64,000 nucleotides of DNA, taken from NCBI GenBank assembly GCA_963833225.1, contig CAWHXD010000019.1, positions 374,075 to 438,074 of the forward strand, written 5' to 3'. Position numbers and translations under genes: made by a program. The DNA is from an uncultured Chloroflexia bacterium. Lineage in GTDB: Bacteria; Chloroflexota; Limnocylindria; Limnocylindrales; CSP1-4. The notes below the pieces were generated by a model, which searched no databases, was not told the DNA's origin, and saw only the letters and a list, made by a program, of their open reading frames with translations. Each line of letters opens with the position of its first letter. Position 1 is the first letter of the stretch. Positions 3,203 to 47,536 of the stretch are shown one piece after another.

Positions 3203-4486
3203 TCAGCCCAGGTAGCGCACCCAGAGGTAGACCGTCGAGATCGCCATCGAGGCGCCGACGACGAGCACCCCGTACTTGAGGAACTCCACGAAGTGGATCG
3301 GGTGCTCCTCGCGGGCGGCGAGATTGGCGACCACGATGTTCGCCGACGCCCCGATGATCGTGAGGTTGCCGCCCAGGCAGGCACCAAGGGCGAGGCTCCA
3401 CCACATGGCCCCGGCGGGCAGGCCGTCCACGATGAGGCGCTGGACGATCGGGATCGCGGTGGCCGTGTAGGGGATGTTGTCGACGATTGCCGAGGCACCC
3501 GCCGAGAACCACAGGATCGCGAGCGACGCGACGGCAGGTCGACCATTCGCCGCCTGGGCGATCTCCTGCGCGATGGCGCCCACGATGCCGACCTTGACGA
3601 TGCCCTGGACCAGGATGAACAGGCCAAAGAAGAAGAACAGGGTTGGCCATTCGATCTCGCGCAGCGTGTCGCGGACCTCGAGCCGTCCGACGAGCATCAG
3701 CGCCGTCGCGCCCGCGAGGGCGATCGTCGCCACCTCGAGGCCGATCAGGCCGTGGACCAGGAAGCCGGCGAGCGTGATCGCGAGAACGACCAGCGAGCGG
3801 GCGAGCAGCGGGCGGTCGTGGATGGCGTCGACCGGGTCCTCGGGCATGAGCTCGAAGAAGCGCTCGGCCGGTGGCCTGAGCTGGCGTCCGAAGAACACCC
3901 ACAGGAGCCCGATGAGCGCCACCAGGATCACGAGGATGACCGGTCCCAGGTTCACCAGGAACGCGCTGAAGCTCAGGCCGGCTGCCGACCCGATCAGGAT
4001 GTTGGGCGGGTCCCCGATGAGCGTGGCGGTGCCGCCGATGTTCGACGCGAACACCTGCGCGACGAGGAATGGCACGGGGTTGGCGCCCAGGGTGCGGGCG
4101 ACCGAGATGGCGACCGGCGCCAGCAGGACCACCGTGGTCACGTTGTCCAGGAACGCCGACAGGACGGCCGTGATCAGGGCGAGGACCACCAGCAGCCAGA
4201 ACGGCTGATGACCGCCATGGCGCACCGCGAACAGCGCGATCGCCTCGAACAGGCCGGTCCGCGCCACCGTCTGGGCGAGCACCATCATCCCCGCGAGCAG
4301 GAAGATGACGTTGAAGTCGATGGCCGCGAACGCCTCGGCCTGGTCGAGGATGCCCAGGATCACCATCAACAGGCCGCCCGCGAGGGCGACCAGGGTGCGA
4401 TCGACCTTCTCGATCGCGATCAGGGCATAGGCGACCACGAAGATGCCGCCCGCGACCAGGACGTCGGCGCTCAGGCCGTTGCTCAA
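3203..4486 (-). CDS. ArsB/NhaD-superfamily permease, paralog of 1916..3187
   Basis: 427 aa, collinear at high identity with the plus-strand neighbour (same DNVTTVVL and GGTATLIGDPPNILIGSAAGL blocks). The two genes lie tail to tail with 15 bp between their stops. Confidence 0.8.
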   Translation of the reverse strand: MSNGLSADVLVAGGIFVVAYALIAIEKVDRTLVALAGGLLMVILGILDQAEAFAAIDFNVIFLLAGMMVLAQTVARTGLFEAIALFAVRHGGHQPFWLLVVLALITAVLSAFLDNVTTVVLLAPVAISVARTLGANPVPFLVAQVFASNIGGTATLIGDPPNILIGSAAGLSFSAFLVNLGPVILVILVALIGLLWVFFGRQLRPPAERFFELMPEDPVDAIHDRPLLARSLVVLAITLAGFLVHGLIGLEVATIALAGATALMLVGRLEVRDTLREIEWPTLFFFFGLFILVQGIVKVGIVGAIAQEIAQAANGRPAVASLAILWFSAGASAIVDNIPYTATAIPIVQRLIVDGLPAGAMWWSLALGACLGGNLTIIGASANIVVANLAAREEHPIHFVEFLKYGVLVVGASMAISTVYLWVRYLG

Positions 4487-19370: not shown

Positions 19371-20312
19371 TCACGGGTGCAGCAGCAGCAGGCCGCCCGG
19401 GTAGAGGCGTGCGTCGAGCGACGAGGGGGCGACGACGTCCCCGTCCACCTGCGTGGGGCCCGGCGGTGACACGGTGACCCTGACGTGGGTGCCGAGGAGC
19501 CGGATTCCGGCTCCCGAGTGGGATTCGCCGGCCGCGTCGGCGAGCATGAGCTCCAGCGCGCCACGGATCCCGCCGAGGAGCCCCCCTCGGGGCAGGACGA
19601 ACACGTGCAGCAGCCCGTCATCGGGGCGGATCGGCAGCCTTGGTCCCAGCCGTCCGGGGATCGGCTCGCCGCAGTTGGCCACGAGGACGACGACCGACTC
19701 CAGCTCCTTGCGGACGCCGTCGACCTCCACGATCGTCGGCCGCGGGGCGAGATCACCCAGCAGCCGGCTTGCCGCCAGGAAGTACGCGGCCACCCCGTAC
19801 CGGCGCTTGGCGTCATGGGACGTGGCCGCGATGAGCCGGGCGTCGAGGCCCGTGCCACAGGCCACGATGAACGGGGAGTCGACCGCGTCCGCCCCGTCGC
19901 GGGGGCCACCCGACGGCCGCATCCGGACAGACCCCACGTCGAACGGCACGGGCGAGCCTGCGCGGATGACGTCGATCGCCGCGCCCAGGTCACGGGGCAG
20001 TCCGACCGCCGTCGCGTACAGGTTGCCGGTGCCGCAGGGGACGATGGCGACAGGGGTCCCGCTGCGGGTGAGCGGCCCCGAGGCGTCCCGGACGGTCCCG
20101 TCTCCGCCGGCCACCACGACGAGCCCGGCGCCGGCGTCCACGGCGGAGGTCGCTGCCGCCCGAACCATCGCGGACTCGCCGGCCTCGATCACCTCGATCC
20201 GCGTGGCCCCGCGGGCGCGCGCCGCGGCGGTCACGGCCCGAATGACGCGGCGGCGCTCCCGGTCGTCGCGGATGCGCGACGCGAGCGGGCTGACGATGAG
20301 CGTGGCGAGCAT
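19371..20312 (-). CDS. Diacylglycerol-kinase catalytic-domain (DAGK_cat / YegS-like) lipid kinase
   Basis: 313 aa with LVVVAGGDGTVRDA...VAIVPCGTGNLYA, the conserved DAGK_cat motifs. It starts 10 nt after the E2 stop. Confidence 0.75.
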   Translation of the reverse strand: MLATLIVSPLASRIRDDRERRRVIRAVTAAARARGATRIEVIEAGESAMVRAAATSAVDAGAGLVVVAGGDGTVRDASGPLTRSGTPVAIVPCGTGNLYATAVGLPRDLGAAIDVIRAGSPVPFDVGSVRMRPSGGPRDGADAVDSPFIVACGTGLDARLIAATSHDAKRRYGVAAYFLAASRLLGDLAPRPTIVEVDGVRKELESVVVLVANCGEPIPGRLGPRLPIRPDDGLLHVFVLPRGGLLGGIRGALELMLADAAGESHSGAGIRLLGTHVRVTVSPPGPTQVDGDVVAPSSLDARLYPGGLLLLHP

Positions 20313-20322
20313 CAGCCCGGGC

Positions 20323-21664
20323 TCAAGCGTTCGCGATCTCGTCCCGGAACGCGCGGATGTCCTCCAGGCGGCGCCGGAGCGCGTTGAGGAAGCGGGCGCC
20401 TGTCTCGCCGTCCACGATCCGGTGGTCTGCCGAGAGCGTCAGCTTCATCACCTGCCGGATCCCGATGCCGCCGTCGACGGCCATCGGGGTGGCGATCGCC
20501 GAGGACACGGCCAGAATCGCGGCCTCGCCGGGGTTGATGATCGCGCTGAACTCCTCGACGCCGAACATCCCGAGGTTGCTCACGGTGAACGTGGAGCCGG
20601 CCAGGTCGTCGACCGGGATGGAGCCGTCCCTCGCCGCCGCCGCCAGCGCCGCGACACGATCGTGGAGCGCCGCGATGGTGAGACGGTCCGCGTCACGGAC
20701 GACGGGCACCACGAGCCCCGACGGGACCGAGACCGCCACCCCGAGGTGGACGCGCCGACGGGGATAGACGACCTCGCCGTCGGTGCGCGAGTTGACGTCC
20801 GGGAACTCGGCCAGCGTCTGGGCGGTGGCCGCGAGCACGAAGTCGGTCACGGTGAGGGTGTGGCCCTCTGCCTTGAGCTCCGCGCGGAGCGCGAGCACGC
20901 GGGTGACGTCCACCGCCACCGTCACGGTGAAGTGCGGCGTCGTCTGCCAGCTGTTCGTGAGCCGGGCGGCGATGGTCCGGCGCATCCGGCTCATCGGACG
21001 CGGTGCGTCCTCGCCCTCGACCGGGGGGATGACCGGCTGGGCGACGGGCACCGTCGCGGGGGCTGGCGCTGTGGCTGCGGGTGCCGCCGCGGGCGTGGGT
21101 GCCCCGGCCACGGGGACCGGTCGCGCGGTGGCCGCGGCCCGGACGTCGCGCTCGACGATCCGGCCCTCGGGGCCCGAGCCGGTGACCGAGAGCGGGTCAA
21201 CGCCCAGCTGCGCGGCAAGACGGCTCGCGCGCGGGCTGATCTTCACGCGGCCGGGGGCCGCGGGCGCGGGCGAAGGTGCGGCCTCCGGTGCCGCGGCGGC
21301 CGCTTCCACCGGGGCCTCTTGTGCCTGCGGCGAGGCGGGCGTCGCGACCGCGCGCAGCACCGCGTCCGCGACGGGCGCGGTCACGCGGCGTGACCGGCTC
21401 GGCCGGCGTCTCGGGGACGGCCTCGCCTGGCTGGCCGATCCAGCCGCAGACCGCGTTGACCGGTGCCGTCTCACCATCGGCGACGACCCGGGCGAGGAGC
21501 ACGCCCTCCTCGAATGTCTCGACCTCCATCGAGCTCTTGTCGGTCTCGATCTCGAACAGGACGTCGCCCTTGTGGACGGGGTCGCCCACCTCCTTGCGCC
21601 AGAGGGTGAGCACGCACTCCTCGGTCATCTGGCCGGGCTTGGGCATCAGGATCGGGGTGGCCAT
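20323..21664 (-). CDS. Dihydrolipoamide acyltransferase E2 (lipoyl domain + catalytic domain), with an apparent frameshift in the linker near 21400
   Basis: The lipoyl domain MATPILMPKPGQMTEECVLTL...EIETDKSSMEVE is the C-terminal part of ORF 21197..22372, with its ATG at 21664 preceded by AAGGAG. The catalytic domain with SADHRIVDGETGARFLNALRRRLEDIRAF is in ORF 20323..21477, a different frame. The switch lies next to the palindrome GTCACGCGGCGTGAC (21380..21394). Confidence 0.7.
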
Positions 21665-21696
21665 CGGTGGCTCCTTGCTCGCTCGGCGTCCGGCCG

Positions 21697-24000
21697 TCAG
21701 ACCAGCGCCACGACGGCGGTGACGATGTCGCCCGAGTTGGGCAGGAACGCCTTCTCGAGGCGTTCCGCCTGGGGGCTGATCCCCGGTGCGGCGCCGATCC
21801 GGCCCACCGGGGCGTCGAGATCGTCGAACGCCTCGGCCTGGATGCGGGCCACGATCTCGTTCACGAACGAGCCGGTGAGCACCGCCTGTGCGGCGACCAC
21901 GCAGCGTCCGGTCTTGCGCACGGACGCGAGGATCGTGTCCATGTCCAGCGGGACGAGGCTGCGGACGTCGATCACCTCGGCCTGGATCCCGCGCGATACC
22001 GCGAGCACGTCGGCAGCGGCCAGGGCGTCCGGGACCGCCGGCCCCCAGGCCACGATCGTGGCATCGCCGCCCTGCCGGACGACGTTCGCCTTGCCGATCG
22101 GCGTGGTGTAGTCGCCCTCGGGCACCACGCCCTTGGTGGAATACAGGCCCTGGCTCTCCACGAACACCACCGGGTTGTTGGTCTGGATCGCGCTCCGCAG
22201 CAGGCCCTTGGCGTCCGCGGCCGTGGCCGGGTAGACGACCCACAAGCCGGGGATGTGGGTGAACAGCGACTCCAGGCTCTGGCTGTGCTGGCCGCCGTAG
22301 CCCTTGCCGGCCCCCACCGAGCACCGGATCACGATCGGCACCTCGACCTGGCCGCCGGACATGTAGTGCCACTTCGCGGCCTGGTTGGCGATCTGGTCGG
22401 ACGACATCAGCGCGAAGTCCATGTACATCAGCTCGACCACCGGTCGCAGGCCCACGATGCCCGCCCCGACCGCGGTGCCGCAGATCGTCGCCTCGGAGAT
22501 CGGCGTGTTGAACACGCGGTCGCGCCCGAAGGTCTCGATCAGGCCCTTGGTCATCTTGAACGCTCCGCCATAGTCGGCCACGTCCTCGCCGTAGAAGATG
22601 ACCCGCCGGTCGCGGCGCATCTCCTCGACCAGCGCGTCGCGGATGGCATCGCGGTACAGGATCCGGCCCTCCGCATCGACCTTGCTCACCGGGGCGTCCG
22701 CGAGCAGCGCGGGCTTCGCATCTGCGGCCGGAACCTCCTCGGACGTGCCGTCGGTGTAGAGCAGGTCAAGCAGGCTGGACGGATCGGGGTCCGTGGCCGC
22801 CGCGGCGCGCTTCGCTGCCCGGGCGTTGCGCTCGGCCGCTCCCGCAAGCACAGCGGCCACCTCGTCGTCGGTGGCAAGCCCGGTTTCGACGAGTTGGCCC
22901 TTGAGCTGCTCGATCGGGTCGACGGCCTTCCACGCGGCCTCCTCGTCGCGCGTCCGGTACTCGTTGCGCGGGTCGGACAGCGAATGGCCGTAGTAGCGGT
23001 AGGTGGAGGCCTCGATGAGGACGGGCCCGTCTCCGGCGCGGCACAGCGCCGCGGCCCGCGTGACGGCGTCGCGGACGGCCAGCACGTCCATGCCGTTGAC
23101 CACCTCGGCGTGCATGTTGTCCGTCGCGAACCCGGCCGCGCGGCGCGCCAGGTGCTTGATGCCCATGACCTCGTCGTCGGTCCGGTGGGTCATGCCGTAG
23201 TGGTTGTTCTGGATGAAGAAGATGATCGGCAGCCCGTACGGCCGATCGCCCGCCAGGTGGTTCGTCCACTGGTGCTGGGCCGCCCAGTTGAGCAATTCCA
23301 GGACCACGCCGTTCGCGTACGCGCCGTCGCCGGCGAAGCAGCACACGACCCCGTCGGTCTGCTCGTAGCGGTGGGCCATCGCCGCGCCTGTCGCGATCGG
23401 CACCGAGCCACCGACGATCGCGTTGGCGCCCAGGTTGCCCGTGGAGAAGTCGCCGATGTGCATGCCGCCCCCGCGGCCGCGGGAGTAGCCCTCGTCCTTG
23501 CCGAACAGCTCGGCGATCACCTTGTAGACGTGCTCCTCGAGGGCCGCGTCCAGGAGCTCGTCGCGGGTGCCGTCCTCGCGGCCCATCCGCGCGCGCAGCT
23601 GCTCGAGCGTCATCTGGCGCAGCGCCGAGAAGCCCTTGGCGATCGCGTCGCCGTGCCCGCGGTGTGACGAGGTGACGTTGTCCGTGATCCGGAGCACGGA
23701 CGAGGCGCCCACCGCCGACGCCTCCTGCCCGATGGAGACGTGCGTGGGACCCCGGTAGTCGTAGCCGGGCAGGGGTTCGTAGCCGCCGCCGGAGCGGAGA
23801 CGGACGATCATCTCCTCCATCTCGCGGATCGCGAGCATGTCGTCCAGGATGCCCAGCGCCTTCGCCTTGTCCAGCGACCCAGCCTTCACCTCGGAGGCGA
23901 GATCGCCCGCGTACTGGAAGCCCGTGATGGACCCCAGCTCCTCCTCGAACGGCGCGAAGTCGGGGCGGGTGTCGCTGTGGTAGACGGTCTCGGTGCTCAT
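21697..24000 (-). CDS. Fused E1 alpha-beta thiamine-diphosphate-dependent 2-oxo-acid / acetoin dehydrogenase component
   Basis: The ATG at 24000 follows AGGAG at spacing 5. The N-terminal half carries a TPP-binding alpha subunit (GHGDAIAKG, GDGAYANG). The C-terminal half carries a transketolase-like beta subunit (NTPISEATICGTAVGAGIVGLRPVVELMYMDF). Confidence 0.85.
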   Translation of the reverse strand: MSTETVYHSDTRPDFAPFEEELGSITGFQYAGDLASEVKAGSLDKAKALGILDDMLAIREMEEMIVRLRSGGGYEPLPGYDYRGPTHVSIGQEASAVGASSVLRITDNVTSSHRGHGDAIAKGFSALRQMTLEQLRARMGREDGTRDELLDAALEEHVYKVIAELFGKDEGYSRGRGGGMHIGDFSTGNLGANAIVGGSVPIATGAAMAHRYEQTDGVVCCFAGDGAYANGVVLELLNWAAQHQWTNHLAGDRPYGLPIIFFIQNNHYGMTHRTDDEVMGIKHLARRAAGFATDNMHAEVVNGMDVLAVRDAVTRAAALCRAGDGPVLIEASTYRYYGHSLSDPRNEYRTRDEEAAWKAVDPIEQLKGQLVETGLATDDEVAAVLAGAAERNARAAKRAAAATDPDPSSLLDLLYTDGTSEEVPAADAKPALLADAPVSKVDAEGRILYRDAIRDALVEEMRRDRRVIFYGEDVADYGGAFKMTKGLIETFGRDRVFNTPISEATICGTAVGAGIVGLRPVVELMYMDFALMSSDQIANQAAKWHYMSGGQVEVPIVIRCSVGAGKGYGGQHSQSLESLFTHIPGLWVVYPATAADAKGLLRSAIQTNNPVVFVESQGLYSTKGVVPEGDYTTPIGKANVVRQGGDATIVAWGPAVPDALAAADVLAVSRGIQAEVIDVRSLVPLDMDTILASVRKTGRCVVAAQAVLTGSFVNEIVARIQAEAFDDLDAPVGRIGAAPGISPQAERLEKAFLPNSGDIVTAVVALV

Positions 24001-24028
24001 CGGGTCTCCTGGGTTTCGGCGGATCGGG

Positions 24029-25021
24029 TCAGGGTTGCGGGGTGGCGACCAGGAGGCGGGCCGCCTCCTCGTCGGTGACCAGGCGGTGGACGAGGCCGCT
24101 GCGGAGGGCGGCCCGGATGGCAGGCACCTTGTCGGCCCCGCCGGCGATGGCGATGACATCCGGCACCCGCCGGAACTGGTCCTCGCGGACGGCGATGCAC
24201 CGCTCCGGCAGGCCGGCGGCGCGGACCTCGCGGCCCTCCGCGTCGAGGACGATCGAAGCGATGTCGGCAACGCCACCCGCCTCGTCAACGGCACGCGCGT
24301 CGGTCTCGGTGAGCGCCGCGCGGATCGTGGATGCACCCGGGCCCCATGCGCCGATGCCGACGACCGCACGCGTCAGTCGATCGAACTGGCTCAGCGTCGC
24401 CGAGGCCATCGGGTCGCTCGCGAGGGCGTCCGCCATCTCGGCGCTGCCCACCAGGAGCGGCACGTGGAGCGGGAAGACCGGGCCTGTCGCGCGTTCGGCC
24501 AGACGGCGCACGAGCTCGAGCGAGTTCAGCTCAAGCTGCAGCGTGGGGACGCTGCCCACGAGCTGCACGACGGTGCAGGCGGGGAGCCGGGGGAGCTGCT
24601 CGACCAGGGCGTGCAGCGTCCTGCCCCACGAGATGCCGAGCACGTCGGCGGCCTCGAGGACATCGCCCAGGACGGCGGCGGCCGCCCGCCCGAGCCCCGC
24701 GAGGCGCATCGCCTCCGTCCCGGTCGAGGAGCGGACCACCACGGCCCCGCGGATCCGGTAGCGGTCCCGGAGCGCGTCGGCGAGCTCCAGATCCAGCTCC
24801 GGAAGCGGCGCGATGTCAATCCGGACGATGCCGTCCCGACGGGCCCGGTCCAGCATCCGGGCAACCCTGAAGCGCGACACGCCCAGCTCGGCGGCGATCT
24901 CGCTCTTGCTGGCGCCGTCGAGGTAGTAGCGGCGGCAGGCCAGCACCGTGCTCAGGAGGTGCAGCCGGGATGCGGACGCGTCGCGATCGAGGACCACGCG
25001 AGTAGCGTATGACCTGATCAT
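24029..25021 (-). CDS. SorC/DeoR-family transcriptional regulator (HTH + sugar-phosphate-binding CggR-like domain)
   Basis: 330 aa with an N-terminal HTH (KSEIAAELGVSRFRVARML) and a SorC C-terminal domain. It ends 29 nt before the E1 start. Confidence 0.8.
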   Translation of the reverse strand: MIRSYATRVVLDRDASASRLHLLSTVLACRRYYLDGASKSEIAAELGVSRFRVARMLDRARRDGIVRIDIAPLPELDLELADALRDRYRIRGAVVVRSSTGTEAMRLAGLGRAAAAVLGDVLEAADVLGISWGRTLHALVEQLPRLPACTVVQLVGSVPTLQLELNSLELVRRLAERATGPVFPLHVPLLVGSAEMADALASDPMASATLSQFDRLTRAVVGIGAWGPGASTIRAALTETDARAVDEAGGVADIASIVLDAEGREVRAAGLPERCIAVREDQFRRVPDVIAIAGGADKVPAIRAALRSGLVHRLVTDEEAARLLVATPQP

Positions 25022-25052
25022 TCGAGCGTCAACCGCTCAAATGATCAGGTCA
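25010..25052. promoter_or_regulatory. 43-bp near-perfect inverted repeat (19-bp arms, 5-nt loop) covering the SorC regulator start codon
   Basis: TGACCTGATCATTCGAGCG-tcaac-CGCTCAAATGATCAGGTCA, with an 18/19 match between the arms. The start codon of the regulator (ATGATCAGGTCA) is the left arm on the minus strand. Confidence 0.5.
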
Positions 25053-25443
25053 GGCAAGGAGCTGGCCGCCGATCAGCCGGCGGCAAGCGACTGGCCGCCC
25101 CCCCAAGCCTGCGGGCGGTTGAACGGTGCGGTCCCGGCACCGGTCGGCCGTCCGGCGCCCGGATCAGGCCCTGGCCCGTCGCCGCACCGCACAGATGGAC
25201 CGCCCGGCGGCAGGAGGCGAACGTGGCTGCACCGTAGGACCGCTGAGCTGCAGATGCGCGACGGTCATCCGATCCTGTCAGCACCGGATGGCATGGGGAC
25301 ACCCAGCGGCGCAGTCGTCGCAGGGTGCGACCGTCGGGTCACGGAGCGGCCGGGCACATCGTCGGCCACTCCCATCCGCGCGGCCGGACTCCAATCGCCG
25401 TGCCGTCGTTGGCCCCGCCACCTCGAGGCGGCAGGGCATCGGG

Positions 25444-26268
25444 TCAGACCAGGTCGGTTTCGATCCCGAAGGCGTCCTTGACCGAGCGGAGCTCATCGTC
25501 GGTCAGGCGCTGGCCGCGACCGCCGGCGACGAGGTCCAGGTACTCGTAGCGGGCCCCGGCCTCCGCGTACTCGATCCGGTCGACCGCGCGGGTGACGCTG
25601 ATGTCGCTGCGGGCCATGACCCCGTGCTTGGACCAGACGTCGATGCGGTGCGTCCTCAGGCTTCCCACGTTGGCGGCCATCATTGCGTCCGACCCGGGGA
25701 GCATGAACGGCAGGATGCCGATGCCCCGCGGGAGCTGGACGATGGTCTCCGGCTCCCAGCGCATGACCCTGGCGTTGAAGTAGGCCTCGTCGCTGTATTC
25801 GGGGATGTGCGACAGGTAGGTCAGGTGCGGCGGCTGGGCGTGGACGACCGCATGGAAGTTCGTGCCGGTGCGTGCGACGGTGTCGTCGTGGACGGCGAGG
25901 TGCGAGTTCCACTCCGAGGTGAGCTTCTCGAACAGCCGCCCCGGGGAAGTCCACAGCGTCGCTGTCACGCCGTCGGCTTCGATGACGACCGCTCCCACGC
26001 TGTTGACCGGCGTGACCGCCAGGTCCCGGAGGCGCCGGCCGGATCCCGTGACGATGACGGTGTGGCCGGCCAGGCGCGCGGCCGGGAGCGGCAGTGCGAT
26101 GGACTCGCGGTTCGGGAAGCGCCGCCGGACCTCGATCGGCCAGCCGATGCAGATCGAGATGTTGCCGGCGGCCCCTTCGCCCGCGTCGATCGCGGCCACG
26201 CGGCGGCCGCCCTCGCCCATCGAGGCCAGGAGCTCGTCGAGCTCGGGGAACGGCTCGTTCAGCGCCAT
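25444..26268 (-). CDS. rhaD: Rhamnulose-1-phosphate aldolase (class II aldolase/adducin family)
   Basis: The internal ATG at 26268 follows GGGAGGA. The 274-aa product has VTGSGRRLRDL and GIGILPFMLPGSD...WSKHGV, paralleling E. coli RhaD's VTGSGKFFRNV and GVGILPWMVPGTD...WPFHGV. Confidence 0.8.
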   Translation of the reverse strand: MALNEPFPELDELLASMGEGGRRVAAIDAGEGAAGNISICIGWPIEVRRRFPNRESIALPLPAARLAGHTVIVTGSGRRLRDLAVTPVNSVGAVVIEADGVTATLWTSPGRLFEKLTSEWNSHLAVHDDTVARTGTNFHAVVHAQPPHLTYLSHIPEYSDEAYFNARVMRWEPETIVQLPRGIGILPFMLPGSDAMMAANVGSLRTHRIDVWSKHGVMARSDISVTRAVDRIEYAEAGARYEYLDLVAGGRGQRLTDDELRSVKDAFGIETDLV

Positions 26269-26278
26269 CGAGTCCTCC

Positions 26279-27496
26279 CTACCAACTCGCGGCCGTGCCG
26301 CCCACCCGCGCCGCGTACTTCGCCTCCTCCTCACCCGACGCGAGGTAGGCGCGGTAGGGGTCGGGCGCGAGCCCGCGCGCGACCCGCAGCTCGGCGAGGA
26401 GCGGCCGGACGTCGGTGTTGAACGCATCCCACAGGCAGCCGTTCGCCTCCAGCACGTCGCCCGCCGCCTGCGCCGCCACCAGCCGCTCGCGGTCCACCAG
26501 CAGCACCTTGGCGATCGTCTCCTGGAGGTTCATGACGCTCCGGATCATGGCCGGCACCTTGGGCTCGATGTTGTGGCACTGGTCGAGCATGTAGGTGGTC
26601 TGGTTGGCGGTCTCCTGAGCGATCGGATCGGCGTCGTCGCGCATCGCGTTGACCAGCTCGTGGGCGATCCGGAAGAGCTGGTATGGGTCGATGGAGCCGA
26701 CCATGAGATCGTCGTCGCCGTACTTCTTGTCGTTGAGGTCGAAGGCGGCCAGCTTCCCCTCGGCGAGGAGCAGGGCCACGATCTGCTCGATGTTGACGCC
26801 CATCGCGTGGTGTCCGGTGTCGACGCACACGCCGGCGCGATCGCCCAGCTGGCGCACGACGTTGAGGCTCTGTCCCCAGTCCTGGACGTCGGTGCTGTAC
26901 AGCGCGGGCTCGTAGAGCTTGTACTCGAGGTACAGGCGGGCGTTCGCGGGCAGCGCGGCGTAGACCTCCCGCAGCCCGGCGACCAGCCGTCGGTGCCGTC
27001 CGCGCAGGTCGTCCTGGCCCGGGTAGTTGGTGCCGTCGCCCAGCCAGACCTTGACCGCCTGGGCATCGGTCGCGGCGGCGATCTCGCAGCAGCCCACGAT
27101 GGCCGCGACGGCCTTGGCGCGGACACGGGCGTCGGGATGACAGATCGACCCGAGCTTGTAGTCCTCGTCTTGGAAGGTGTTGCTGTTGATGCCGCCGAGG
27201 ACGAGCCCGCGCCCCTTCGTGTAGGCCGCGAGCCCCGCCCAGTCATCGACCATGTCCCAGGGGATGTGGAGGCTCACGCTGCCCGCGATCCCCGTGTAGC
27301 GGTTGACGGTCGCCGCGTCGTCGATCTTCTCGAACACCGTGCGCGGCACCCCCTGCTGGGGGAACACGCGGAACCGGGTCCCGGTATTGACGAAGCCCCA
27401 CGACGGAATCTCGATGTTGACGCCGTTCATGGCCCAGTCGATGCGCTCGATGGCCGGGGCGGACGCGGGCTTGGCGATGGCGGCGATGGTGGCCAT
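26279..27496 (-). CDS. rhaI: L-rhamnose isomerase (xylose-isomerase-like TIM-barrel, actinobacterial/Pseudomonas-stutzeri type)
   Basis: 405 aa. It sits in a rha operon between the kinase and aldolase genes, and the sugar-phosphate-isomerase TIM-barrel motifs are present. Confidence 0.8.
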   Translation of the reverse strand: MATIAAIAKPASAPAIERIDWAMNGVNIEIPSWGFVNTGTRFRVFPQQGVPRTVFEKIDDAATVNRYTGIAGSVSLHIPWDMVDDWAGLAAYTKGRGLVLGGINSNTFQDEDYKLGSICHPDARVRAKAVAAIVGCCEIAAATDAQAVKVWLGDGTNYPGQDDLRGRHRRLVAGLREVYAALPANARLYLEYKLYEPALYSTDVQDWGQSLNVVRQLGDRAGVCVDTGHHAMGVNIEQIVALLLAEGKLAAFDLNDKKYGDDDLMVGSIDPYQLFRIAHELVNAMRDDADPIAQETANQTTYMLDQCHNIEPKVPAMIRSVMNLQETIAKVLLVDRERLVAAQAAGDVLEANGCLWDAFNTDVRPLLAELRVARGLAPDPYRAYLASGEEEAKYAARVGGTAASW

Positions 27497-27513: not shown

Positions 27514-29007
27514 TCAGGCGGAGGTGGCGGGCCGGCGGGCGCAGATCGCGGCGAACCGCGCGCGCGCCTCGGTCCAGTCACCGGACGGTTCATAGGTGGT
27601 GATCGGGAAGGAGCGGGCCGCCAGCTCGCGTGCCTCGGCGACCGAGGCGAGCTCGCCCGACGCGATGGCCTGGACGGCGAGGTTGCCAATGGCCGTTGCC
27701 TCGACGGGGCCGGCTCGCACCGGGAGCCCGGTGGCGCCGGCGGTCAGGCGGTTGAGGAGGCGGTTCCTGCAGCCACCGCCCACGATGTGCACGGCATCGA
27801 TCGGCTGGTCTGACGCGGCGGCAAGCTGGTCGATCGCCGCGGCATAGCGCAGCGCCAGGCTCTCCAGCAGGACGCGCATCAGCGTGCCGGTGTCGCGCGG
27901 CACGGGCTGATCGGTCTCGGCGCAGAACTCGCGGACGCGAGCCGGGAGGTCGCCCGGGCGCAGGAAGCGCTCGTCGTCGGGATCGATGAACGCGGTGAAC
28001 GCCGGCGCGGCCTCGGCGAGGCCGGCCAGCTTCTCGTAGGTCGGTGCCTCGCGATCCGGCCACAGGGCGCGCCGGCTCTCCTGGACCAGCCACAGGCCAA
28101 CCACGTTGCGCAGCAGCCGGATCGTGCCGACCACGCCACCCTCGTTGGTCAGGTTCGCGGCGAGGGACACGTCGGAGATCACCGGCTCCGGCATCTCCAA
28201 CCCGATCAGCGACCAGGTGCCCGAGGAGAGGAAGGCGGTGGATCGGGATCCGATCGGGGTGCCGACAACGGCCGAGGCCGTGTCGTGCGAACCGGGGAGC
28301 ACCACCCGCGTGAGGGCGAGCCCGGACGCGCTCGCGAGCCCGTCCATCAGGCCGCCCACGTCCGTGCCGGGCGGAACGATCTCCGGCAACAGCCGGGTCG
28401 GGATGCCAAGGCGCTCCAGCATGGGTCGAGCCCAGTCGCGGGCCCGGGCGTCGAGCGCCTGGCTGGTGGATGCGAGCGTGTACTCGGACACGCTGGCGCC
28501 CGACAGGAAGTGGGCGAACAGGTCGGCCATCATCAGCAGCCGGTCCGCGTGCCGCAGGAGCGGGTCGTCCGCGCTCGCCATGGACAGCAGCTGGTACACG
28601 GTGTTGATGGCCATGAACTGGATGCCCGTGACGGCGTAGATCTCGTCCCGCGGGACCAGCCCGAACGCCCGCTCAAGCATGCCGTCGGTCCGTGCGTCAC
28701 GGTAGTGGACGGGGTTCGCGAGCAGTCGCCCCCGCTCGTCGAGGAGCGCGAAGTCCACGCCCCAGGTGTCGACGGCGACGGAGGCCACATCGCCTGCCGC
28801 GCCGGCCTTGCGCAGGCCGGTCCCGATGTCGCCGAACAGGCGCAGGGCGTCCCAGTGGAGCGTCCCCGCCACGGCCACGGGCACGTTCGGGAACCGGTGG
28901 ATGTCCTCGATCGCAAGCCGCTCGCCGTCGAAGGTGCCGACGAGGACTCGACCGCTTTCGGCACCCAGGTCGACGGCCGCGAGCCGGACGTTGGCGCGCT
29001 CAGTCAA
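27514..29007 (-). CDS. rhaB: Rhamnulokinase (FGGY carbohydrate kinase family)
   Basis: 497 aa with the FGGY N-terminus (AVDLGAESGRV...DTWGVDFALLD) and the C-terminal GGG...N motif. Confidence 0.85.
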   Translation of the reverse strand: MTERANVRLAAVDLGAESGRVLVGTFDGERLAIEDIHRFPNVPVAVAGTLHWDALRLFGDIGTGLRKAGAAGDVASVAVDTWGVDFALLDERGRLLANPVHYRDARTDGMLERAFGLVPRDEIYAVTGIQFMAINTVYQLLSMASADDPLLRHADRLLMMADLFAHFLSGASVSEYTLASTSQALDARARDWARPMLERLGIPTRLLPEIVPPGTDVGGLMDGLASASGLALTRVVLPGSHDTASAVVGTPIGSRSTAFLSSGTWSLIGLEMPEPVISDVSLAANLTNEGGVVGTIRLLRNVVGLWLVQESRRALWPDREAPTYEKLAGLAEAAPAFTAFIDPDDERFLRPGDLPARVREFCAETDQPVPRDTGTLMRVLLESLALRYAAAIDQLAAASDQPIDAVHIVGGGCRNRLLNRLTAGATGLPVRAGPVEATAIGNLAVQAIASGELASVAEARELAARSFPITTYEPSGDWTEARARFAAICARRPATSA

Positions 29008-46906: not shown

Positions 46907-47536
46907 TCAGCTCCCCGCCAACAGCTGCTTGGCCAGGTCCACCGCCGCACCCGCATCGGGAGCGAAGCCGTCGGCGCCGATCTGCTCGGCGAACTCGGGC
47001 GTGGTGGGCGCGCCACCGATCATCACCTTGGCACCGACGTCGGCGGCCTTGATGGCCTCCACCACGGCCCGCATGTTGGGCATCGTGGTGGTCAGCAGGG
47101 CGCTGAGGCCGATCAGGCGGGCGTCGTGCTCGCGGGCGGCCTCGACGAACTTGGCGGCGGACACGTTCACCCCGAGGTCGATGACCTCGATCGCCGCTCC
47201 CTTGAGCATCATGCCGACCAGGTTCTTGCCGATGTCGTGGAGGTCGCCCTCGACGGTCCCGATCACCGCCGTGTGCTCGGGCCGGATCCCGGCCTCCACC
47301 AGGCTCGGCTCGAGGATGGCCGTGGCTTCCTTCATCGCCCTCGCGGCGATGAGCATCTCGGGGACGAAGATCTCGCCCTCCTGGAACTTGCGGCCGATGA
47401 CCCCCATCGCCTCGGTCATCGCATCCAGGATCTCCTGGGCCGATACGCCCGCCGCCAGGGCCTCGGTTGTCAGCCGGGCCGCCGATGCCCGGTCGCCTGC
47501 CTCGATCGCCCTGCCCAGCTCGCCCAGGTCAGCCAT
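46907..47536 (-). CDS. Cobalamin-binding corrinoid protein (MtaC/MtbC-like: B12-binding-2 helical domain + B12-binding Rossmann domain)
   Basis: The ATG at 47536 follows GAGGAG at spacing 7. The 209-aa product has the His-on B12 motif GDLHDIGKN and the GGAP glycine-rich motif. Confidence 0.8.
   Translation of the reverse strand: MADLGELGRAIEAGDRASAARLTTEALAAGVSAQEILDAMTEAMGVIGRKFQEGEIFVPEMLIAARAMKEATAILEPSLVEAGIRPEHTAVIGTVEGDLHDIGKNLVGMMLKGAAIEVIDLGVNVSAAKFVEAAREHDARLIGLSALLTTTMPNMRAVVEAIKAADVGAKVMIGGAPTTPEFAEQIGADGFAPDAGAAVDLAKQLLAGS

Follow-up and report, generated by a model that had tools for sequence, protein, structure and literature searches.

A 43-bp palindrome in front of a SorC-family gene of an uncultured Chloroflexota bacterium as a probable bipartite operator over a predicted promoter

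Background

In the genome of an uncultured Chloroflexia bacterium (GTDB class Limnocylindria; NCBI GenBank assembly GCA_963833225.1), the annotated start codon of a SorC-family regulator gene lies inside one arm of a 43-bp inverted repeat downstream of a rha operon. The question raised by this locus is whether the repeat works as RNA, by hiding the start codon or ending the rha transcripts, or as DNA, by binding a protein. We analyzed the 64,000-nt stretch of contig CAWHXD010000019.1 that carries the repeat (positions 374,075 to 438,074; hereafter the window, to whose numbering all positions refer unless a locus is named). An earlier reading of the letters alone (the sequence-only reading) had proposed both RNA roles as well as a dimeric operator. 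Our analysis indicates, with a probability of about three in four, that the adjacent SorC/DeoR-subfamily repressor has its bipartite operator in this palindrome, placed over a sigma-70-type promoter of an operon of the regulator gene (sorC) and two genes for a dehydrogenase-like complex (E1 and E2). The coordinates of the features are summarized in Table 1.

Results

The palindrome and its fold

The 43-bp palindrome is a real, non-random feature. Its sequence in the window is TGACCTGATCATTCGAGCG-tcaac-CGCTCAAATGATCAGGTCA, and the coordinates, the arms and the loop agree with the sequence-only reading, which had called the hairpin perfect; in fact 18 of the 19 arm positions are complementary (95% by the repeat finder), the odd pair being C.A on the plus strand and G.U on the minus (sense) strand. 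The minus-strand RNA of the 43-mer folds into an unbroken 19-bp stem of -33.5 kcal/mol, compared with -9.1 +/- 2.3 kcal/mol for shuffled 43-mers (z-score -10.5; 0 of 200 shuffles as stable). No sign of a repeat family of the repetitive extragenic palindromic (REP) or miniature inverted-repeat transposable element (MITE) kind was found within the window, where the 13-nt half-site has no second copy and the spacer upstream of the palindrome is also single-copy by blastn. A permissive Rfam scan of positions 24000-26000 gave best E-values of 0.84-8, far under the gathering thresholds.

Two boxes superimposed on a predicted promoter

To compare the element among relatives, we collected 24 orthologous loci (denoted by L numbers) from public genomes and metagenome contigs. 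They represent Chloroflexota metagenome-assembled genomes (MAGs) labelled "Chloroflexia" or "Candidatus Limnocylindrales" and gave 20 unique upstream sequences, all of which align to the window without gaps in a single register. The consensus is cGCTCattTGAGCG - cTTGa - CGCTCgaaTGatcg - N5 - TAgGaT, and its conserved core consists of two tandem 14-bp boxes, CGCTCAnnTGAGCG and, after 5 nt, CGCTCRnnTGAnnn, followed by TAnnnT. The bases of Box 1 are nearly invariant, with 94% of its cells palindromic across the sequences. In Box 2, the CGCTC inner half is invariant, TG is conserved and the outer half is degenerate among the orthologs; L022 has a perfect CGCTCATGTGAGCG at this place. The boxes lie 19 bp apart from centre to centre and together cover 33 bp, from about -50 to -18, an arrangement that corresponds to two half-operators (about 35-45 bp) in or next to a regulated promoter and is found in all 20 unique sequences.

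The "loop" of the hairpin is the gap between the boxes, and inside it lies the TTG of the predicted -35 hexamer. This TTG (T21, T22, G23 of the alignment) is invariant in all orthologs; the T, A and final T of the predicted -10 hexamer are kept in all unique sequences, and the spacing from TTGnCG to TAnnnT is 17 nt in every one of them. The alignment is uninformative in the 15 nt that precede Box 1 and in the 5 nt leading up to TAnnnT. The pattern is predicted to be a sigma-70-type promoter with two protein-binding boxes superimposed on it, the promoter having been recognized through the comparative alignment only.

We also counted the stem pairs on 19 unique sequences. The inner five pairs (GAGCG/CGCTC) are essentially constant, and they are the only such pairs; the outer five fail to pair in 9-12 of the 19 sequences, and in seven sequences no pair forms at the central "nn" positions of the boxes, which do not co-vary. 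In a covariation test of the RNA stem, no measure was convincingly above shuffles. What is conserved among these sequences is the bases and not the pairing, as would be expected for a protein-binding site.

The regulator and known systems of the family

The annotated 330-aa product carries a SorC sugar-binding effector domain (PF04198, IPR007324; E = 1.2e-57) at residues 77-325. The HTH_28 and HTH_23 models match residues 31-65 slightly under their cutoffs, and the DeoR and LsrR models also match below cutoff. The best solved structures are 8r7y (DeoR of Bacillus subtilis), 2w48 (SorC of Klebsiella pneumoniae) and 4l5i (LsrR of Escherichia coli). Full-length DeoR aligns from residue 17 of the regulator and the SorC and LsrR alignments also span the DNA-binding domain, while CggR aligns only over the effector-binding domain (residues 72-317). 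The N-terminal part is a short homeodomain-like helix-turn-helix (HTH) of the DeoR type (about 50-60 aa), not the winged helix of about 100 aa of CggR.

SorC-family repressors are tetramers (dimers of dimers) that bind two half-operators, and phosphosugar effectors disrupt the assembly (PMC11229326). The closest parallel is B. subtilis DeoR at the dra-nupC-pdp promoter (8r7y; PMC11229326), which has the same domain organization as our regulator and is its best structure match. The DeoR operator of 39 bp, from -60 to -21, overlaps the -35 hexamer (PMC11229326), as does the slightly shorter bipartite site here, and by analogy a tetramer would be the binding unit and a phosphosugar the inducer. 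The recognition sequences differ, CGCTCA-N2-TGAGCG here against a TTCAA-based palindrome plus a direct repeat in DeoR, and both boxes here are palindromes. Moreover, our regulator is the first gene of its own operon, with a leaderless promoter predicted, whereas deoR is located in front of the operon that it targets; the targets here would be genes for E1 and E2 of a pyruvate dehydrogenase (PDH)-like complex, whereas those of DeoR serve nucleoside catabolism, and binding in our case is a prediction.

CggR of the B. subtilis gapA operon (PMC11229326) is likewise a SorC-family repressor encoded by the first gene of its operon, its two palindromic half-sites bind a tetramer, and its effectors are the sugar phosphates fructose-1,6-bisphosphate and dihydroxyacetone phosphate. 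However, CggR binds DNA through a winged helix and belongs to another subfamily, and its operator, at +32 to +77, is located past the transcription start site (TSS) and acts as a roadblock, whereas the site here overlaps the -35 hexamer and the promoter spacer. E. coli LsrR resembles our regulator as an autoregulated tetrameric repressor of the SorC/DeoR subfamily with an FGGY kinase in its locus and a near full-length match, but the score of 112 bits is far under the LsrR equivalog cutoff of 486 bits, and the locus here is without lsrACDBFG genes. The "LsrR" label given by JGI to orthologs is a family-level label and does not denote orthology.

These comparisons suggest that the site is a member of the SorC/DeoR bipartite operators, with the same architecture and a different recognition sequence. 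The idea of an operator for a regulator of this type in the sequence-only reading was therefore well placed, but its single dimer site is better described as two tandem 14-bp boxes.

The protein expected to bind the boxes

The element goes with sorC-E1-E2 irrespective of the gene on its upstream side. The upstream genes are rhaB-I-D on the same strand in the window, L001, L003, L014, L018 and L021, divergent rhaI/rhaEW-like genes in L015, L017, L019 and L023-25, and genes for an isocitrate lyase in L020, a GntR regulator in L022 and a histidine kinase in L026-28. With a weight matrix of Box 1, we also found the 14-bp box in Actinobacteria, where the 200 nt in front of SorC homologs of 42-47% identity contain one to three copies. 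The four loci concerned are of the Pseudonocardiales type, namely Longimycelium (L006), Actinophytocola (L007), a Pseudonocardiaceae MAG (L008) and L011. There is one copy in L007 and there are two to three in the other three loci, and in all four the boxes sit in the spacer common to the regulator and a divergent ATP-binding cassette (ABC) solute-binding protein gene. An FGGY kinase gene follows the regulator in L007 and L008; E1 and E2 are present in none of the four loci. The actinobacterial loci share a second motif, TGCAAnAATGAGC, about 15-20 nt upstream of the gene-nearest box.

Across both phyla, the HTH region RRYYLDGASK.EIA.E.G.SRFKVARLL is nearly invariant, with SRF[R/K]VAR as the DNA-binding helix. 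The same box thus stands beside regulators of 42-47% identity with different neighbours and a conserved recognition helix. Since the motif follows the DNA-binding domain of the regulator, we argue that the adjacent SorC protein is the predicted binder of the boxes and autoregulates, and the distribution suggests a cross-phylum regulator-operator pair with different regulons.

A different transcription factor, for example a global carbon regulator, could bind the same operator, and the single site per locus in the Chloroflexota loci would fit such a protein. We regard this as unlikely, given that the box co-occurs with SorC homologs in two phyla despite the differing target genes, that their recognition helix is conserved, and that regulators of this family normally have an autoregulatory operator at their own promoter (PMC11229326).

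Searches of the 64-kb window with the 13-nt half-site, the TGAGCG-N5-CGCTC core, the Box 1 consensus and the weight matrix of the box gave chance-level matches only. The best extra match, at 47195, lies where long open reading frames (ORFs) overlap on both strands. The region upstream of the E1 gene (24001-24028), where the sequence-only reading had advised looking for the same half-site, has no box, only an AGGAG Shine-Dalgarno sequence. A search of the literature for the motif string combined with SorC gave no relevant result.

The length of the stem in the window

The orthologs have just the inner 11 bp of each arm in common with the window, whose outer 8 bp are seen in none of them. In L014, whose protein is 96% identical, the distal arm (TTGTTCGCTCATTTGAGCG) is complementary at 11 of 19 positions. 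The closest relative, L029, has 15 differences in 749 nt (25648 to 24900); its proximal arm is identical to that of the window, and its distal arm (TGATCCGCCCATTTGAGCG) is complementary at 14 of 19 positions, compared with 18 of 19 for the distal arm of the window (TGACCTGATCATTTGAGCG). Four substitutions relative to L029 are clustered within 6 nt, and each creates complementarity with the other arm; at the background divergence of 1.5%, the chance of such a cluster is about 6e-6. The hairpin energy changes from -19.3 kcal/mol in L029 to -33.5 kcal/mol in the window, and an inner T.G mismatch common to the window, L014 and L029 has been left uncorrected.

Because the four clustered substitutions all run toward complementarity, they most likely reflect one short template switch during replication, in which one arm served as the template for the outer part of the other. 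The ancestral element would have been a quasipalindrome with 11-14 of 19 positions complementary; the nascent plus strand, having passed 25010-25043, would have folded back and copied 25044-25052 from itself. Quasipalindrome-associated template-switch mutation is a mechanism described with reporters in E. coli and yeast (PMC7202029, PMC3820800). As in the reporter cases, an imperfect inverted repeat (14 of 19 in L029) appears to have been made more perfect by contiguous substitutions templated from the other arm; unlike in those cases, the event is proposed from a comparison of natural sequences, at a regulatory site of an uncultured bacterium.

The cluster changed the outer half-site of Box 1 from CGC[T/C]CA (CGCCCA in L029) to TGATCA. 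The operator was probably not damaged, because CGCCCA and TGATCA are each one mismatch from [C/T]GCTCA; many orthologs, moreover, have TGATCA as their outer half-site of Box 2. This bears on two other origins of the 19-bp arms, namely selection, for a more symmetrical operator or for a cruciform that modulates the promoter, and a consensus error of long reads at the inverted repeat. Box 1 has become the exact mirror of Box 2, as selection for symmetry would have it, and one assembly alone carries the change, as an error would. Both origins together seem improbable to us: with one mismatch before and after there is no obvious gain for the operator, an artefact would need four specific substitutions without indels, and four complementary changes beside an uncorrected inner mismatch are the classic signature of a template switch (PMC3820800).

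The divergence between the window and L029 varies along the locus in a mosaic fashion. Over the 3' end of the aldolase gene, the spacer, the promoter and the first ~30 sorC codons it amounts to about 2%; through the rest of sorC (effector-binding domain; 24050-24900) it reaches about 10-15%, and in E1 it is lower again, suggesting recombination or fast evolution of the regulator body.

The upstream spacer and read-through RNA

The sequence-only reading had considered that the palindrome, as the only strong structure between the aldolase and regulator genes, might double as the terminator of the rha operon. The spacer (25053-25443) holds other structures, including an 11-bp G+C-rich hairpin (GCCCUGCCGCC-UCGA-GGUGGCGGGGC) close to the aldolase stop, a structured block and a second hairpin next to the palindrome (Table 1), and the whole region 24990-25450, palindrome included, is strongly structured as RNA (z-score -5). 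The 11-bp hairpin is conserved in L014 and L029; although it has no U-tract either, it is a more plausible 3' end of the rha transcript than the palindrome is. As for an intrinsic terminator at the palindrome, the stem is present, but the tail (UACGCUACUCGC) has no U-tract, and a terminator scan of 24000-26000 returned 0 terminator-like sites. The element is also not tied to the 3' end of an upstream gene; in L002, L004, L005, L015-L017, L019, L020 and L022-L028, it is conserved beside divergent or unrelated upstream genes, and therefore termination is not its conserved function.

The extended hairpin of the window in particular might still act on RNA that reads through from rhaB-I-D, as a terminator without a U-tract, a 3'-end stabilizer or an insulator before sorC-E1-E2. 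The rha genes are on the same strand, so that read-through RNA would hold the full hairpin; the palindrome is the most exceptional structure of the spacer, and in L018 and L021 the operator begins a few nucleotides past the aldolase stop. We nevertheless find such a role doubtful, since the U-tract and a terminator call are missing, the 11-bp hairpin is better placed and further structures occur in the spacer, the element is fully conserved beside divergent or unrelated genes, and the long stem is found in this window alone. It seems slightly less likely still that the palindrome, once made by the template switch, gained an added role, either by forming a cruciform over the promoter spacer and -35 hexamer, and so modulating the promoter, or by serving as a rha terminator or insulator without a U-tract. 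If it did, a single sequence would combine the functions of DNA operator, promoter core and RNA structure, and a terminator or insulator would uncouple rhamnose catabolism from the PDH-like operon.

Spacer length between the aldolase gene and the operator differs widely, from 5 nt in L018 (2946-2951) to 391 nt in the window (390 in the sequence-only reading) and about 600 nt in L001, where arrays of 21-23-nt tandem repeats fill it (3535-3866). The spacer ORFs of the window have no Pfam matches, and insertions and deletions against L014 do not come in multiples of 3; the spacer has no Rfam match either. Directly upstream of Box 1 (25053-25099), the window has an insertion of ~27-35 nt relative to L014 that is common to L029 and forms the second hairpin. 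Part of it nearly duplicates the sequence beside it (GGCAAGGAGCTGGCCGCC / GGCAAGCGACTGGCCGCC), and the operator-adjacent region appears prone to local rearrangement.

The start codon of the regulator

The deposited NCBI/ENA gene call starts the 330-aa product at ATG 25021 (25021-25019 on the minus strand), which lies in the proximal arm and within Box 2 (AATGATCA). In seven orthologs (L001, L003, L012, L015, L017, L018 and L030), the frame opened by the ATG of Box 2 runs into a TAG four codons (12 nt) on, at the beginning of their -10 box TAGGCT. The 8-residue extension from ATG 25021 is not conserved, no Shine-Dalgarno sequence precedes this ATG, and most orthologs are called at 318-321 aa. 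Start calls are inconsistent even among close relatives of the same 90% cluster (309, 320, 341 and 346 aa).

Protein similarity starts at GTG 24997, and a translation begun there can be aligned from its first residue. In 14 of the 20 unique sequences, the window included, the -10 box is followed at 6-8 nt by a GTG or ATG; the remaining orthologs have a leader of ~65-85 nt, with a GAGGA-type Shine-Dalgarno sequence in most, and unchanged promoter and boxes. In high-GC bacteria, leaderless genes are recognizable by TANNNT some 12 nt ahead of the start codon, and such genes have been detected in some Chloroflexi (PMC3160421). In the window, TACGCT, 6 nt and GTG follow each other with no room for a Shine-Dalgarno sequence. 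Because the start codon comes 6-8 nt after the -10 box in 14 sequences, the mRNA is most likely leaderless, with GTG 24997 rather than ATG 25021 as its true start.

With GTG 24997 as +1, the palindrome extends from about -55 to -13. It lies upstream of the predicted TSS, and the hairpin would therefore not be part of transcripts from the operon's own promoter. The sequence-only reading, which had the hairpin sequester the start codon, had named a TSS downstream of the hairpin as the finding that would overturn it; such a TSS is predicted here rather than mapped. That the palindrome is transcribed in the 5' region of the regulator and hides ATG 25021 from initiation is very improbable: the sense-RNA hairpin is indeed very stable, and the ATG lies in its 3' arm, where the deposited annotation begins, but orthologs do not keep this ATG as a start (seven have the in-frame TAG, the extension is unconserved and a Shine-Dalgarno sequence is missing), the conserved -35/-10 pair puts the TSS downstream, and the outer stem is missing from all other orthologs, with no covariation, for which reasons we rejected a translation-occluding mRNA hairpin.

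Gene neighbourhood

The genes described here around the palindrome are all on the minus strand (Table 1). The earlier label "rha operon" for the upstream genes is reasonable, as the isomerase scores above the RhaI_grampos cutoff and rhamnulokinase and rhamnulose-1-phosphate aldolase are the best matches of the other two. Because of the 28-nt gap between the SorC stop and the E1 ATG (24000) and the AGGAG Shine-Dalgarno sequence before this ATG, SorC-E1-E2 reads as one operon. SorC-E1 synteny is kept in every locus for which the downstream flank is available.

The order sorC, fused alpha-beta E1 and E2 is kept across these Chloroflexota (window 19371-24997, L001-L028), and the three genes often adjoin rhamnose catabolic genes (rhaB, rhaI, rhaD or rhaEW), suggesting a sugar-responsive PDH-like complex for the C3 products of rhamnose breakdown. 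The E2 gene of the window is split between frames, with the lipoyl domain read from ATG 21664 and the E3-binding and catalytic part in the ORF 20323-21477. The frame change falls in the Ala/Pro-rich linker, near 21380-21400 (region 21380-21664, minus strand). E2 orthologs are one protein of 424-471 aa, and the split is either a real frameshift or an assembly indel error.

Table 1. Features of the palindrome region, its neighbouring genes and the related actinobacterial boxes
Feature	Position	Strand	Remarks
FGGY kinase	27514-29007	-	best model rhamnulokinase
Isomerase	26279-27496	-	RhaI_grampos, score above cutoff
Class II aldolase	25444-26268	-	best model rhamnulose-1-phosphate aldolase; stop at 25444
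11-bp G+C-rich hairpin	~25412-25437	-	~6 nt after aldolase stop
Structured block	25100-25215		
Second hairpin	25053-25096		
Inverted repeat	25010-25052		43 bp; arms 25010-25028 and 25034-25052, 19 nt each; 5-nt loop
Substitution cluster relative to L029	25044, 25045, 25047, 25049		four within 6 nt (25044-25049); each creates complementarity with 25013-25018
Box 1	25034-25047	-	reads TGATCAttTGAGCG; ortholog consensus [C/T]GCTCAnnTGAGCG, 14-bp palindrome
Predicted -35 hexamer TTGACG	25027-25032	-	"loop" and first bases of proximal arm/Box 2
Box 2	25015-25028	-	reads CGCTCGaaTGATCA; fills promoter spacer; holds annotated ATG
Predicted -10 hexamer TACGCT (TAnnnT)	25004-25009	-	directly after palindrome
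Probable true start GTG	24995-24997	-	predicted 5' end of leaderless mRNA; 6 nt after -10
SorC/DeoR-subfamily regulator	24029-24997	-	322 aa from GTG; annotated 330 aa from ATG 25021
Fused alpha-beta E1, 2-oxoacid/pyruvate-dehydrogenase-like complex	21697-24000	-	operon gene 2; 767 aa
E2 acyltransferase	20323-21664	-	operon gene 3
YegS-like lipid kinase	downstream, listed with E2	-	
CGCTCAnnTGAGCR box in Actinobacteria	L006 3808-3921; L007 3972-3985; L008 3814-3928; L011 2829-2932		

Discussion

In the model that we propose, Box 1 would lie just upstream of the -35 hexamer and Box 2 in the promoter spacer, the -10 hexamer TACGCT would come next, and transcription would start at or beside GTG 24997. 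By analogy with B. subtilis DeoR, a repressor tetramer, with one dimer per box, would occlude RNA polymerase until a phosphosugar effector releases it, and the outcome would be negative autoregulation together with inducible expression of the PDH-like E1 and E2. The 19-bp symmetry that first drew attention to the site would be a lineage-specific by-product and not the functional unit.

Several points weigh against this interpretation. The outer half of Box 2 is weakly conserved (71% palindromic), and a simple sigma-70 scan missed the promoter because its -10 hexamer is a poor match to TATAAT; the promoter and the identity of the repressor are predictions. The Box 1 matrix finds no further site above chance in the 64-kb window, and support at the level of a regulon comes from orthologs and not from several sites within this genome. 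As to the long stem, the template switch is proposed from one assembly compared with one very close relative, and selection for symmetry or an assembly consensus error may also account for it.

The operator proposed here is ordinary regulatory biology that would not surprise a specialist. Its useful part is the correction of the annotation, in which the start moves from ATG 25021 to GTG 24997 and the case for riboregulation is left unsupported. The mutation cluster, a minor evolutionary footnote, would be a clean natural case of quasipalindrome correction at a regulatory site. For the family, the motif CGCTCA-N2-TGAGCG in tandem 19 bp apart, together with the promoter model, would provide an operator for a SorC subfamily of uncultured Limnocylindria-type Chloroflexota, and as the motif is common to Actinobacteria of the Pseudonocardiales type it would permit the prediction of regulons. 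For these bacteria, the operator would tie a dehydrogenase operon with a fused E1 and an E2, often found beside rhamnose genes, to the sensing of sugars.

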